Assembly: GCA_013203785.1 (NCBI GenBank)
Contig: JABMPJ010000047.1
Span: forward strand, 2,459 to 66,458
Source of the DNA: Lentisphaerota bacterium
GTDB lineage: Bacteria; Verrucomicrobiota; Kiritimatiellia; UBA8416; JABMPJ01
Length of the DNA: 64,000 nt
Direction: 5' to 3'
The notes beneath the pieces are model-generated. The model did no database searches. It saw nothing but the letters and a program-made list of their open reading frames with translations, and was not told the origin of the DNA. The translations under genes and the position numbers were made by a program. Numbering within the stretch: position 1 is the stretch's first letter; each line of letters starts with the position of its first letter. Of the stretch, positions 27,325 through 50,268 are shown one piece after another.

Positions 27325-29031
27325 ATGGCATATTTCCACCCCCACAACCTCGTAGCGGCCGTACTCATTTTGATTCACGCCGTACCGGTATTGCCTGCTG
27401 CCACCGTCCCCCTCGCCCTCGGCGTCGTTCGCCAGAGCAACGGGGTCTATCTGGTGGAAAACCACAGTTCAGCGGGGATTGTGTGGCACCTCGCCGGACA
27501 GCGCGGTGCAACCGTCGTGCACTTGGATGCCCATGATGACTGCCGCTTTGTTTCACAGGAGAAGCTCGACCGCCTGACCACTCTCTGGAAACAAGGGGCG
27601 ACGGATGAGATCTTCCGTCTCAGCGATCTTGGAAATGTCTCGTCATTCAAGGTTCGTCCGGAAGATACGCTATATGACCTGGGGAATTTCATCTATCCCT
27701 GCATCAGCGACGGAACCGTTGCTCGCCTCATATGGGTTCTGCCCGATTTCTCACTGGATGCCAGCGCGCGCGCACGACTACAGAGCCACTTGGCCACGGC
27801 CCTTCATCTCGAGACCCCCCGTTTCACCAATCAGCCCGACGGTTCCTTTTCGTTCCCGCTGCTTGAAGCCACCATGGTCGTCACGACTCTGGACGCCATG
27901 CAGCCCCTGCCCGCAGGAGCCCTGCTTGATATAGACGTCGATTTCTTCGCCTTCGATCGCGCACTGACTGACATCCATCTAAAAGGCGACCTACAGTGGG
28001 ACCCTGAGCTTGTCTGCACGCGGCTGGCAACGCTGGTGCCCTCCCCCGCGATTACCACCATTAGCGCCTCGGTCTACGGGGGTTACCTCCCCCTCCTCTT
28101 TCGCTTTATCGCCGATGCCTGCTTTGATGAGTTTGCCTCTGACTCTTATCCCCCTTACGCCCGTCGGCATCTGGATGCAATCCTCACCATGCGCCGAACG
28201 GCCGCTCCGGTGGCACTACCACCGCCGCCCGAGGATCCCACCTACTGTCCCGCCCACCGCCATTTAGAGGGACTCCTCAACCTGATGCAGCACGAGCCGG
28301 AGAAGGCGTTCGCCCTCATGGAAGCGGCGGCTCGCGAAAAACCAATCTACGCCAAAGCACTTCTAGATGCCGCCGAGGCACTGCGCCACATGGGCCAACC
28401 CGAAACCGCGAGCGCGAGCATCGATCGTTTTGAGGCCCTCCAAGGAGGGGCTACGACCGAATCCCGCGCCGAGCGGGTCCATGTGCTTCGCGCCCTCGGT
28501 CGGCTCAATGAGGCTGAGACCATGGCCAAAGTTTTGGTGGCTTGGAACCCCGATCCGCACCTTTTGCTCCTGCACGGTGGCATCCTTGTGGAACTACAAC
28601 GCTATGACGAAGCTACCGTGATCTACAAACACATCCTGGTTCAACACCCGCAGGACTACTTGGCGGCCTACAATTTGGGATATCTCGAGGAGTTACAAGG
28701 CCATGCCGAGCGCGCCATGGCGCTCTATCGCCAGGCGATAGCCTTGCGCCCGGCCTTCGCGGCAGCCCACGAAAACCTGGGCTACCTGCTCGCGAGAGAG
28801 AGCGCGTTCGAAGAGGCCCGGAGGCACCTCGAGAGCGCGATCGCCCTCGCACCCGAAAAAACGACCGCATGGGTCGGGCTGGGCGATGTATTATCGGTTC
28901 TGGATCAGTACGCCCAAGCCACCGCCTCCTATGAGGAGGTCCTACGGTTGCAGCCCGAAGGCCCCGAGGCCACGCATGCGCGCCAGTCGCTCAGGCGACT
29001 GGCAGCGCTCACGAAACCTGCCGCGCCTTAG
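27325..29031 (+). CDS. TPR-repeat protein with ~330-aa N-terminal domain of unknown function
   Basis: C-terminal half holds multiple TPR units (AYNLGYLEELQGHAERAMALYRQAIALRPAFAAAHENLGYLL...). The N-terminal part contains VVHLDAHDDC. ATG at 27325 preceded by AAAGGAG (the track start at 27283 is a TTG). Confidence 0.55.
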   Translation: MAYFHPHNLVAAVLILIHAVPVLPAATVPLALGVVRQSNGVYLVENHSSAGIVWHLAGQRGATVVHLDAHDDCRFVSQEKLDRLTTLWKQGATDEIFRLSDLGNVSSFKVRPEDTLYDLGNFIYPCISDGTVARLIWVLPDFSLDASARARLQSHLATALHLETPRFTNQPDGSFSFPLLEATMVVTTLDAMQPLPAGALLDIDVDFFAFDRALTDIHLKGDLQWDPELVCTRLATLVPSPAITTISASVYGGYLPLLFRFIADACFDEFASDSYPPYARRHLDAILTMRRTAAPVALPPPPEDPTYCPAHRHLEGLLNLMQHEPEKAFALMEAAAREKPIYAKALLDAAEALRHMGQPETASASIDRFEALQGGATTESRAERVHVLRALGRLNEAETMAKVLVAWNPDPHLLLLHGGILVELQRYDEATVIYKHILVQHPQDYLAAYNLGYLEELQGHAERAMALYRQAIALRPAFAAAHENLGYLLARESAFEEARRHLESAIALAPEKTTAWVGLGDVLSVLDQYAQATASYEEVLRLQPEGPEATHARQSLRRLAALTKPAAP

Positions 29032-48588: not shown

Positions 48589-50268
48589 GTGAGACTATTT
48601 CCCAAAGAGACCTGGAGCTATGCCGTCCTACTGGTGATCCTCTTCGGTATCGCCACAATCGCTGTTTGGCAAACCATCGTCTTCCTCGAAGCACGGGTGC
48701 CGGCCAGCGAAATTGGGATCGTCACCGGCCTGCTGTGGACCCTGACAATGGGGTTCATGCTGATCGCTGGTGCCTTCGGCATGTGGTCCATCCAGTTTGC
48801 CGCCGGTGCCGAGAGCCGCCGTACCGTGTCGACCATCGTCTCATCCATGGATTACATCAAGGATGGCCTGCTGGCCGTCGACCACCACGACCGCGTCACC
48901 GGTTGCAATCCAGCCGGCATCGCCATGCTGCATGATGTACCCATAGCGCGCCGCCCTCTGCTGGAGCTATTCCCTTTCCTGCGGCCCGATGATATCGATG
49001 TCCTACTGCATCAAGAGGAGCCTCAAGAAGTCGAACGCTCACACGTCGATGGCGGCTTGACGCACTCCCTGCGCTTCCGATCACAGCCCTCGCGTGGGAT
49101 CACCCTCTTGCTGATCAGCGATGTCACCACCGCTCAGGCACGCCGCAGCCATCACCAGCAGGCGGCCAAGCTGCAGCTCGTCGGCCAACTAGCGCGTGCC
49201 GTGGCCAATGATTTCAACAACCTGTTGTGTGGGATCGCCGGGCACGCCGCCCTCCTGCCACGCCTGCCGCCCGGGGCCAAAGAGATGGCCGAGTCGATTC
49301 AAGCCATAGCACAGAGCTCCGAACACGGCATTGCACTGGCCGGACACCTTATGGAACTCTCGCGCCCGACCAGCGGATCATTTCCGACCCGTATGATTGC
49401 CGACCACATTCGCAACGCGGCCACCACCCTGGGTGACGCCCTTCCAACCGGATGGAAGGTTGAGACAGAGATCAAGGAGACTCCCTCGACCTCTCTGACC
49501 GGGATGCAGATTGAACAGGTCGTCATTAATCTTGGCCAGATCATCGCCTCGGAAGCCGGGCCCACCGGTGTCATTTCGATTATTCTGGGTCCCCCGGGCT
49601 CACATCCGCTCCTCAATATTGCCGAGACATTTTCCGGCGGTATTGTGCTGGCGGGTACGGGCGCCGACCTCTCTATGCTGCATGCTACGACGACCGACAG
49701 CTCCGATGACTCAGGACTCCTCCTCGCCGTTATACACTCAATTATGGACGGCGCCGGTGGCGTTCTTGACAAACTCGCCAGCGTGGACGGTCGCCCCATC
49801 TTCCGCATCGCCCTGCCCGTGACAGCGGCATTTGAGAGTTCGGATGAGCAGTCTGAACTCCCCTTTGACGTGGACCACTACCTCGCCAACTGGCGTATCC
49901 TCGTGGCGGGACGTCGGCATCATCACACCGCCCTCACCAAACGGCTCAAGGAGGCGGAGGCAACCGTGACCACGGTGGACAGCATCACAGCCATTCTGGC
50001 GGCCACGGAGAGCGAGACGAGACTGGACTCCGTCGTGCTGGATTGGCCGCTCCTGGGCGCAGAGGAGGAAGGCACACTAAAGGCGCTCTGCAAGCTGGCA
50101 CCCGCGGCTGGGATCGTCGTCCTACGGGACTCGCGCCCGCTCTCACGGCAGCATCAACTCCCCGGGGTGGTCTATGTACCCGAGCAGGCCCGTGTGGAAC
50201 GCGTGCTGATGGCCATGGTCGAGGCGCGCAGTCTTGCCGCCGCCCGTAACCGGCTGACCCATGGTTGA
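48589..50268 (+). CDS. Histidine-kinase-like protein with degenerate catalytic motifs (H-box His replaced by Asn); C-terminal degenerate receiver-like region
   Basis: GTG start 7 bp after pilQ with a GGAG RBS. Two or three N-terminal TM helices. The HisKA-like block LVGQLARAVANDFNNLLCGIAGHAALL has Asn at the phospho-acceptor position. The N-box asparagine and G-boxes are not recognisable (NLGQIIASEAG...ETFSGG...DSGLLL). The C-terminus (ILVAGRRHH...) lacks the receiver acidic pocket. Confidence 0.55.
   Translation: MRLFPKETWSYAVLLVILFGIATIAVWQTIVFLEARVPASEIGIVTGLLWTLTMGFMLIAGAFGMWSIQFAAGAESRRTVSTIVSSMDYIKDGLLAVDHHDRVTGCNPAGIAMLHDVPIARRPLLELFPFLRPDDIDVLLHQEEPQEVERSHVDGGLTHSLRFRSQPSRGITLLLISDVTTAQARRSHHQQAAKLQLVGQLARAVANDFNNLLCGIAGHAALLPRLPPGAKEMAESIQAIAQSSEHGIALAGHLMELSRPTSGSFPTRMIADHIRNAATTLGDALPTGWKVETEIKETPSTSLTGMQIEQVVINLGQIIASEAGPTGVISIILGPPGSHPLLNIAETFSGGIVLAGTGADLSMLHATTTDSSDDSGLLLAVIHSIMDGAGGVLDKLASVDGRPIFRIALPVTAAFESSDEQSELPFDVDHYLANWRILVAGRRHHHTALTKRLKEAEATVTTVDSITAILAATESETRLDSVVLDWPLLGAEEEGTLKALCKLAPAAGIVVLRDSRPLSRQHQLPGVVYVPEQARVERVLMAMVEARSLAAARNRLTHG

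Follow-up and report, generated by a model that had tools for sequence, protein, structure and literature searches.

We analysed a 64,000-nucleotide stretch of contig JABMPJ010000047.1 (assembly GCA_013203785.1, Lentisphaerota bacterium), hereafter the window, in which genes resembling the Arn (aminoarabinose) pathway lie within a type IV pilus locus. Seven genes spanning 33625-42537 (8.9 kb) form a discrete accessory cassette set between the pilM operon and the operon of a pseudopilin trio, and they include two membrane glycosyltransferases of the GT-C type: an ArnT-like enzyme, and a TMTC/TfpW-like enzyme with C-terminal tetratricopeptide repeats (TPR), which we call TPR-GT-C. The pilin signal that emerges from comparison with relatives attaches to TPR-GT-C; neither the ArnT-like enzyme nor the arn operon in itself carries it. 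We consider it an evenly balanced proposition that the locus is composite, an old type IV filament locus holding an accessory glycosylation cassette that would, on the most parsimonious view, perform TfpW-like pilin glycosylation with an Arn-type donor and would serve a second acceptor through the ArnT-like GT-C. More tentatively, and with less confidence than in that general outline, we hypothesize that an Arn-type 4-amino-pentose, possibly methylated, is put on type IV pilins or pseudopilins by TPR-GT-C, and that the ArnT-like GT-C uses the same donor for a different acceptor.

The cassette and its boundaries

The cassette genes and the two upstream regions that bound them are as follows.

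33625-34551, minus strand: stand-alone ArnA-type N-formyltransferase (Formyl_trans_N and Formyl_trans_C; NF005414)
34551-35459, minus strand: ArnD-like deformylase/deacetylase (Polysacc_deac_1; ArnD model positions 4-293 of 294)
35459-36205, minus strand: short GT2 of 248 aa, candidate polyprenyl-phosphate glycosyltransferase (AglJ/PpgS/DPM1-like; Glycos_transf_2)
36195-37391, minus strand: DegT/ArnB-type sugar 4-aminotransferase, corrected start GTG 37391 (DegT, 394 bits)
37388-39667, minus strand: ArnT-like GT-C, 759 aa (PMT_2, 27 bits; predicted structure)
39660-40523, minus strand: class I S-adenosylmethionine methyltransferase (Methyltransf_11)
40567-42537, plus strand: TPR-GT-C, 656 aa, TMTC/TfpW-like, with a membrane domain of about 410 aa and C-terminal TPR; one cassette boundary
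33465-33628, minus strand: pseudopilin upstream region with promoter-like TTGACC-17-CACAAT; one cassette boundary
42538-42595, plus strand: pilM upstream region, 58 bp, with conserved block TTGTCT-17-TACTAT

Each open reading frame (ORF) named in a first-pass annotation of this DNA was found at the position given there, and its domain calls (Methyltransf_11, PMT_2-type GT-C, DegT, GT2, Polysacc_deac_1 and formyltransferase) were upheld by Pfam and NCBIfam. The minus-strand train runs methyltransferase, ArnT-like GT-C, aminotransferase, short GT2, ArnD-like deformylase and ArnA-type formyltransferase, and all of its junctions overlap, by 8, 4, 11, 1 and 1 nt from methyltransferase through formyltransferase. 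The 8-nt (39660-39667) and 11-nt (36195-36205) overlaps, as well as the 160-bp and 13-nt spacers on the pseudopilin side, had been described correctly; three other details had not. A 44-bp gap reported between the ArnT-like GT-C and the aminotransferase is an artefact, since the conserved N-terminus RPAxEGGTPVR of the orthologs in L001, L003 and L004 (labels L001-L122 denote relatives' contigs and metagenome loci fetched for comparison) extends upstream of the annotated start; the aminotransferase therefore starts at GTG 37391, and the real junction is a 4-nt GTGA overlap with the GT-C stop. The supposed ATGA junctions at 34551 (formyltransferase start) and 35459 (deformylase start) are TGATG, with 1-nt overlaps, and the one at 33048, between the first two pseudopilin genes (pp138 and the FG-GAP gene), is GTGA.

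The arn train had also been described as translationally fused to the pilus genes, a description contradicted by the 160-bp spacer, which carries a promoter-like site and is retained in the cassette-less relative L087. That site, TTGACC-17-CACAAT (33628-33600, minus strand), is the sole sigma-70-like site called by a promoter scan of 28800-43000 (14 kb), and the formyltransferase stop codon TGA sits within its -35 box. The spacer aligns over its full length with the pp138-proximal half of the intergenic region in L087, and it is conserved in L001 as well. On the other side of the cassette, a 32-nt block within the 58 bp before pilM is identical to L087 at 28 of 32 nt; its TTGTCT-17-TACTAT element has 8 of 12 matches by eye and so was not called by the scan, which needs 9 of 12. 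Because both flanking upstream blocks are also kept in L087, we regard 33625-42537 as a discrete cassette. The adjacency of arn and pil genes is therefore real, but the "tight embedding" claimed for it gives way to an accessory cassette placed between two retained upstream blocks, lost in L087 and pilin-free elsewhere. Comparing 33520-33720 with 42440-42640 revealed no boundary repeats or target-site duplications of at least 9 nt. Between the start codons of the divergent methyltransferase and TPR-GT-C genes there are 43 bp in the window (40524-40566) and 26-82 bp in the gene calls of L001, L003 and L004, too short for two ordinary promoters, and therefore the cassette promoters would overlap coding sequence or lie elsewhere.

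The train together with the divergent TPR-GT-C recurs in three further assemblies (L001/L007, L003/L010 and L004/L005; 53-60% identity), and as four independent assemblies show the same order, the arrangement is not an assembly artefact. Nor is the order of pil and arn genes restricted to this genome, a possibility that the first-pass annotation had raised: the cassette is kept in four of five lineages of the clade, L087 being the one without, and other arrangements occur in L098, L091 and L009. L087 and the outgroup L090 share the window's synteny (panC-kinase-pilQ...pilM, divergent from pp138-FG-GAP-pp364, then TPR-CAAX-GFO), with the region from pilM to pp138 empty. In the PilM/PilQ identity matrix, L087 falls beside cassette-bearing L003 (PilM 88%, PilQ 80%); the window PilM is 65-74% identical to those of L001, L003 and L004. 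Since L087 is nested beside a cassette-bearing lineage, its lack of the cassette is best read as secondary loss, and by this comparison of sequences the cassette appears ancestral to the window's clade and cleanly lost in L087. The same matrix rules out a neutral recent insertion with L087 and L090 as the ancestral state. Composition is uninformative on horizontal transfer, as GC content at third codon positions does not differ between the cassette genes and the remaining window (0.713 for both, p=0.97), and overall GC is only a little raised in the cassette genes (0.629 vs 0.597). Another outgroup, L102, has TPR-GT-C alone, directly upstream of pilM.

The TPR-bearing GT-C and prepilin genes

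The window's TPR-GT-C has no Pfam match to PMT, PMT_2 or TMTC_DUF1736, only TPR matches, and some of its homologs carry PF13231, PF08409 or PF02366, or bear the name protein O-mannosyl-transferase. In an alignment of 23 sequences (A3), F40-x-W42-D43-D44, which lies right after the first transmembrane (TM) helix, is invariant in 23/23, and so are K201-E202 and the residues R80, F82, R84 and P85 of RSFYRP. Motifs M1 (DD in EL1), M2 (SHKSYRP-like) and M4 (KE..T), defined for the TMTC/PMT clan (PMC7801869), are all found in TPR-GT-C, followed by TPR repeats. That DD, RxxR-P and KE are invariant suggests a working enzyme. A Foldseek search of PDB with TPR-GT-C was swamped by TPR proteins.

As the protein-based matrix is blind to divergent pilins, the fetched loci were scanned with a prepilin-signal pattern. 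The TPR-GT-C loci come from a single metagenome scan seeded with that subfamily, with duplicates removed and at least 6 kb of flank required. Two or three prepilin genes were found within 0.1-7 kb at 9 of the 18 loci with homologs of at least 34% identity, compared to 1/16 loci with homologs below 34% (Fisher p=0.008) and 0/76 generic GT-C control loci (p=5e-8); the control loci (1.25 Mb) gave three prepilin-pattern matches altogether, never two in one locus. The count of nine would rise with L102 (pilMNOPQ), L098 (homologs of the FG-GAP pseudopilin and pp364), L107 (one adjacent prepilin) and L109, whose duplicate served as cluster representative.

These loci take many forms. L009 has an operon pp139-pp179-PilX/DUF7305-TPR-GT-C, divergent from a GT-C-GT2 pair, and in L120 a GspH-N_methyl-N_methyl-PilX_N set ends 17 bp from a convergent TPR-GT-C, among housekeeping genes and with no arn genes. 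In L093 (Thermodesulfobacteriota), PilX-PilW-PilV-GspH-PilR-PilS-PilD is divergent from TPR-GT-C; in L094, TPR-GT-C is followed by three prepilins; in L100 and L105 it lies within a pseudopilin cluster; and in L102 it stands upstream of pilMNOPQ with no arn genes. L091 (Kiritimatiellia) has four pseudopilin genes adjoining TPR-GT-C and a full orthologous arn module with the GT-C duplicated. L098 has a trio like that of the window with the arn genes on its other flank, a sign of independent placement. L008 and L121 have TPR-GT-C and arn genes in a single operon, and in L091, L095, L098 and the window clade the two lie side by side. TPR-GT-C is thus the hub, found with pilin sets in some nine different layouts and with arn genes in some five. 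In L120, an 818-aa protein with a spermine/spermidine-synthase-like domain and TPR repeats (7745-10201) is encoded directly upstream of TPR-GT-C.

The pilin arabinosyltransferase TfpW, which had been cited as a precedent, proves to be a closer one than was realised, being a GT-C with C-terminal TPR encoded next to pilin genes and sometimes next to donor genes. TfpW is reported to be a 646-aa protein that crosses the membrane in about 11 TM helices, bears an essential DDX motif in its first periplasmic loop, ends in a periplasmic TPR domain and is best modelled on ArnT; its gene adjoins pilA and, in P. indica and K. denitrificans, is clustered with lipid-linked pentose donor genes (10.1101/2020.04.19.049825). 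Judged by the published description of TfpW from Pseudomonas aeruginosa Pa5196/PA7 (group IV pilins), the two share a GT-C of about 650 aa, a DD motif, C-terminal TPR, pilin-gene neighbours and donor genes nearby. However, TfpW adjoins the major pilin, whereas TPR-GT-C adjoins minor pseudopilins or pilM; the TfpW donor is DprE1/E2 D-Araf, whereas the cassette donor would be Arn-type, made via an aminotransferase, a formyltransferase and a deformylase; and the cassette has a second, ArnT-like GT-C and a methyltransferase. A tblastn search of plasmids for a named TfpW-like relative returned nothing relevant.

Eukaryotic TMTC1-4 and their full-length bacterial homologs likewise have an N-terminal GT-C membrane domain followed by TPR, with motifs M1, M2 (xSxYRP) and M4 kept. 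TPR-GT-C differs in being bacterial and periplasmic, with a donor that is presumably undecaprenyl-phosphate-linked and, in this locus, probably carries an aminopentose in place of mannose. The bacterial relatives of human TMTC O-mannosyltransferases have been described as uncharacterised (PMC7801869).

PglL, PilO (TfpO) and TfpM are also pilin-linked glycosylation enzymes often encoded beside pilin genes, but they are of the Wzy_C/O-antigen-ligase type and use undecaprenyl-diphosphate oligosaccharide donors. The first-pass annotation had considered a PglL-type identity for 37388-39667 and 40567-42537, of which no sign was found: Wzy_C is matched by neither cassette GT-C, and the structural matches listed, for either model, are GT-C enzymes and include no WaaL- or PglL-type chain. 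Its view that the two GT-C enzymes differ, the first being ArnT-like and the second TMTC/PMT-like and TPR-bearing, stands. The histidine oxidation of a Klebsiella fimbria and cyanobacterial Ogt (GT41) were considered as precedents and found not relevant.

Donor sugar, acceptors and rival explanations

That the pathway is Arn-like, as had been proposed, is borne out by a formyltransferase at the model cut-off, a full-length ArnD match, an aminotransferase at ArnB/PseC level and a PpgS/AglJ-like GT2. The formyltransferase scores 316.2 bits on NF005414 (cut-off 316) and 316 bits on the N-terminal half of ArnA (1-277). The deformylase matches the ArnD model end to end (4-293/294) with 104 bits against a cut-off of 382, and the aminotransferase, with 322 bits on ArnB (cut-off 631) and 326 bits on PseC, is clearly a DegT-class sugar aminotransferase. 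The short GT2 scores 89 bits on AglJ and 55 bits on PpgS over the full model length; on ArnC it scores 36 bits (cut-off 529) over positions 7-123 of 316 only, the C-terminal membrane part of ArnC being absent. It could still carry out an ArnC-analogous step.

The same module is a single same-strand operon in L008 (an Acidobacteriota metagenome-assembled genome), L121 and L122. The cassettes of these three and of L098 hold a short-chain dehydrogenase/reductase (SDR) of the ArnA dehydrogenase (ArnA-DH) type, which reaches 442 bits against the UDP-4-keto-pentose/UDP-xylose synthase model (cut-off 294) and 401 bits against the C-terminal half of ArnA; its counterpart in L098, which carries the FG-GAP trio, is of this type too, at 56% identity. 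Because sister cassettes encode this SDR in addition to the ArnA-type formyltransferase and ArnD-like deformylase, the cassette sugar is probably a 4-amino-4-deoxy-pentose. The L006 module, which has neither pilins nor TPR-GT-C, encodes a PALP-family (PF00291) enzyme (13850-14815) after the deformylase and no DegT aminotransferase, which hints at a different amination route or a different sugar there. The methyltransferase is present in L001, L003, L004, L006, L008, L091 and L121; its gene comes right before that of the ArnT-like GT-C in L006, L008, L121 and the window clade, and in L091 it has another place in the cluster. Its C-terminus has no Pfam match at E<=10.

The AlphaFold model of the 759-aa ArnT-like GT-C (pLDDT 76) has an extra N-terminal TM helix, a beta-sandwich at residues ~35-206, which we infer to be periplasmic from the order of helices in the model, and a GT-C core. 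The protein sequence is 100% identical to an NCBI entry attributed to "Lentisphaerae bacterium". In a Foldseek search of PDB, ArnT is the top match (5F15/5EZM; E 8e-7, TMt 0.55), with Emb, AglB, STT3 and PglB close behind; the margin over Emb, AglB and STT3 is small. P286, H287 and D290, past the third helix, are invariant. A sequence search of PDB with the profile of this enzyme gave nothing, and its beta-sandwich and C-terminal domains have no Pfam match at E<=10. Its genomic contexts are drawn from few full-length homologs; a 794-aa protein of L093 was rejected as one (hhalign probability 7%). L091 has two divergent ArnT-like paralogs (15762-20495; 761 aa with 40% and 775 aa with 35% identity to the window enzyme), with the methyltransferase adjoining the second.

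The Arn system (PmrHFIJKLM) of E. coli, Salmonella and Burkholderia shares with the cassette an ArnB-like enzyme, an ArnA-type formyltransferase, an ArnD-like enzyme, a loading GT2, a GT-C whose best structural match is ArnT and the logic of formylating, loading and deformylating. The cassette differs by its short PpgS/AglJ-like GT2 in place of ArnC, by the window's lack of ArnA-DH and ArnE/F, by the beta-sandwich on its GT-C, by an extra methyltransferase and a second, TPR-bearing GT-C, and by its home in a pilus locus. In Francisella FlmF2/NaxD/FlmK, Bordetella LgmABC and M. tuberculosis PpgS/Rv3779, an N-acylated aminosugar is first attached to polyprenyl phosphate by a GT2, its amine is then freed by a deacylase, and in the periplasm a GT-C moves the sugar to its acceptor; the targets are lipid A or arabinogalactan and the sugars are hexosamines. 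The cassette follows the same logic, and its GT2 matches PpgS over the full length. To our knowledge, none of these systems is tied to pilin genes or has a TPR-bearing GT-C.

Gene content, homologies, folds, cassette boundaries and the statistics of synteny are results of this analysis; which sugar is made, which lipid carries it, what each GT-C modifies and what the methyltransferase does are inferred. UDP-4-keto-pentose would be made by an ArnA-DH-type enzyme, the gene for which is in the cassette of other lineages and not in this window; the DegT/ArnB-like enzyme would add the amino group to it, and the ArnA-type formyltransferase would then N-formylate the product. Loading of the formylated sugar onto polyprenyl phosphate would fall to the short GT2, the ArnD-like enzyme would deformylate it, and the lipid-linked sugar, once flipped, would be used in the periplasm by the GT-C enzymes. 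TPR-GT-C would be the likeliest transferase onto pilins or pseudopilins, with a TPR domain that would hold the protein being modified, as is the case for TfpW and TMTC, and the ArnT-like GT-C with its partner methyltransferase may use the same donor for a second acceptor (lipid A, another envelope glycan, or the pilin-linked sugar itself). On this evidence pilins are a credible target of the cassette transferase; the giant FG-GAP pilin, which the first-pass annotation had favoured, is a guess at the acceptor.

A number of observations weigh against this proposal. A tblastn search of the window with the L008 enzyme found no ArnA dehydrogenase (UDP-glucuronate C4 oxidative decarboxylase), the window SDRs being RmlB/GalE/Fcl-like and none of the ArnA-DH type. 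There is no true ArnC in the window and no ArnE/F match among its ORFs of at least 150 aa, smaller ORFs being unscanned; the cassette genes overlap or abut, leaving no space for a small membrane gene such as ArnE/F. Most pilin-linked TPR-GT-C loci carry no arn genes, and so TPR-GT-C does not need this donor. Its neighbours are minor pseudopilins or pilM and not a pilA-type major pilin, and the proline-rich TfpW-family motif YX6PFX7P of PL4, searched as a regular expression, is absent from 23/23 members of alignment A3. The outgroup L090 lacks the cassette, the cassette hosts are uncultured bacteria, and lipid A stays the default guess for the acceptor of the 759-aa enzyme because ArnT is its best structural match.

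This last point also speaks for a pure envelope-lipid system, in which both GT-Cs would put the aminopentose on lipid A, lipopolysaccharide (LPS) core or another glycolipid, as the Arn, Lgm and Flm/NaxD systems do, and the cassette would be a passenger in a permissive intergenic region. Further points count for such a system, the first three of them also against a pilin target. The full arn modules of L006 and of the Acidobacteriota-type loci L008 and L121 have no prepilin gene within ~10 kb, and the cassette thus exists in other phyla apart from pilin genes. L087 lost the cassette cleanly and kept its pilus genes, and hence the cassette is dispensable for the filament. The pil operons appear, from their conserved sequence, to keep their own upstream blocks, which does not imply co-regulation with the cassette. 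In L001, six unrelated genes split TPR-GT-C from pilM, the cassette block still being joined to the pseudopilin trio, and therefore the same intergenic region has accepted other DNA (L001 1374-7043: GFO/IDH oxidoreductase, AP endonuclease 2, rubrerythrin-like, PhoH/PIN, RsmB and a 94-aa ORF). However, a pure envelope-lipid system leaves unexplained the association of TPR-GT-C with prepilin genes (the nine or so arrangements, and 9/18 loci against 0/76) and the presence of arn genes beside pilin sets in at least three separate ways (the window clade, L098 and L091/L009), and TPR-bearing GT-Cs have protein-directed precedents in TfpW and TMTC. We consider it unlikely, although it is the best placed of the alternatives.

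It is rather improbable that the functions are split, with TPR-GT-C using another polyprenyl-phosphate sugar produced elsewhere or being a non-catalytic assembly factor (PilF/PilW/Tgl-like), the arn genes and ArnT-like GT-C serving LPS, and the two being neighbours as envelope accessory genes. TPR-GT-C is the first gene of a same-strand arn operon in L008 and L121, it directly adjoins arn genes in five arrangements, and its invariant motifs favour a working enzyme. Least probable by far is that the cassette glycosylates not pilins in particular but different proteins of the periplasm or surface, such as the secretin, the 396-aa protein or a broad O-glycoproteome. This would accord with the varied protein classes acted on by TMTC and PMT enzymes and with L102, which, like one flank of the window cassette, has pilMNOPQ and not pilins next to it. 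Across arrangements, however, minor-pilin sets are what most often lies beside TPR-GT-C, in many cases with neither a secretin nor PilMNOP near (L120, L009, L094, L100).

Pilin glycosylation by a TPR-bearing GT-C clustered with a lipid-linked pentose pathway is already known from TfpW. In the literature searched, we found nothing on an Arn-type aminopentose donor for pilins, a minor-pilin context or a paired ArnT-like GT-C and methyltransferase, and no cross-phylum link of TMTC-like enzymes with minor-pilin sets. Aminoarabinose is the textbook lipid A modification behind polymyxin resistance, and a link to a pilin-type transferase would extend the pathway to proteins; if the proposal is true, this would be the first use of the Arn pathway in protein glycosylation. 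It would also give a large family of bacterial TMTC-like enzymes a function, that of modifying pilins, especially the minor-pilin tip complex, and the link between TPR-GT-C and minor pilins across phyla offers a testable function for bacterial TMTC homologs. Because pilin glycosylation is known to protect against pilus-specific phages, such cassettes may by analogy be accessory surface-variation or phage-defence modules in environmental PVC (Planctomycetes-Verrucomicrobia-Chlamydiae) bacteria, which would fit the pattern of gain and loss.

Flanking pilus genes and other neighbours

The genes on either side of the cassette are the following.

27283-29031, plus strand: TPR protein of 582 aa (TPR582), convergent with the pseudopilin trio (TPR Pfam matches)
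29028-30122, minus strand: pp364, 364-aa PilX/GspK-like minor pseudopilin (N-terminus PilX_N-like by eye)
30136-33051, minus strand: giant FG-GAP/VCBS pseudopilin of 971 aa, PilW/GspJ-like with a propeller insertion (FG-GAP_3; prepilin signal AFTLVE)
33048-33464, minus strand: pp138, 138-aa GspI-like minor pseudopilin (N_methyl 27 bits, weak GspI match), with a GTGA overlap with the FG-GAP gene
42596-46566, plus strand: pilM, pilN, pilO and pilP-like genes and a 396-aa gene, labelled a lipoprotein in the first-pass annotation (PilM_2; weak T2SSM match)
46629-48581, plus strand: pilQ/GspD-type secretin (Secretin, Secretin_N and N0 domains)
48589-50268, plus strand: histidine-kinase-like protein whose ATPase domain is degenerate, closing the pilM operon (weak HisKA; VirA-like match, 54 bits)

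The three pseudopilins, PilM and the secretin are present as annotated. A class III signal with N-methylation motif and hydrophobic helix is found in pp138 (N_methyl) and in the FG-GAP protein (AFTLVE); pp364 is PilX-like by eye and has no Pfam or NCBIfam match. Orthologs of pp364 (51-73% identity) always come after the FG-GAP pseudopilin, whose own orthologs match PF07963. Homologs of the giant protein (P0059-P0099) comprise about 30 full-length clusters (~970 aa) and a form of ~690 aa without the propeller insertion (47% query coverage), one such homolog being named "PilW family"; the long form has a net charge of about -64. A search of the trio for Ser/Thr-rich acceptor tracts found only short GTPxAPS-type linkers between FG-GAP repeats, which are not decisive.

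The order pilMNOP-396aa is conserved in L003, L004, L087, L090 and L102. The kinase-like gene at its end recurs in every relative, the outgroups L090 and L102 among them; the label pseudo-kinase that it had received is consistent with its weak HisKA match and with the lack of a HATPase_c match in Pfam. The TPR582 ortholog has the same position in L001, L087, L088 and L089. The best terminator-like hairpin of the region (28862-28876, minus strand; CGACC-CATGC-GGTCG, then TTTTTT) lies ~150 nt past the pp364 stop, within the 3' end of the convergent TPR582 gene.

Rightward of the pilus genes, genes of sugar and nucleotide-sugar metabolism at 53105-60629 encode a PfkB kinase, a D-lyxose isomerase, a mannitol-dehydrogenase-like protein, an RmlB/GalE-like SDR (57499-58461), RmlA (451 bits, above the cut-off) and an Fcl-like SDR. 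At the other end of the window, a polysaccharide-degradation cluster (2016-18090) contains two GH106-like alpha-L-rhamnosidase-family genes (2016-5159 and 13705-16620), a gene for an F5/8 type C protein and three tandem paralogs with DUF4838 and a GH2 sugar-binding domain (5252-12590), with an AraC regulator nearby (18170-19069).

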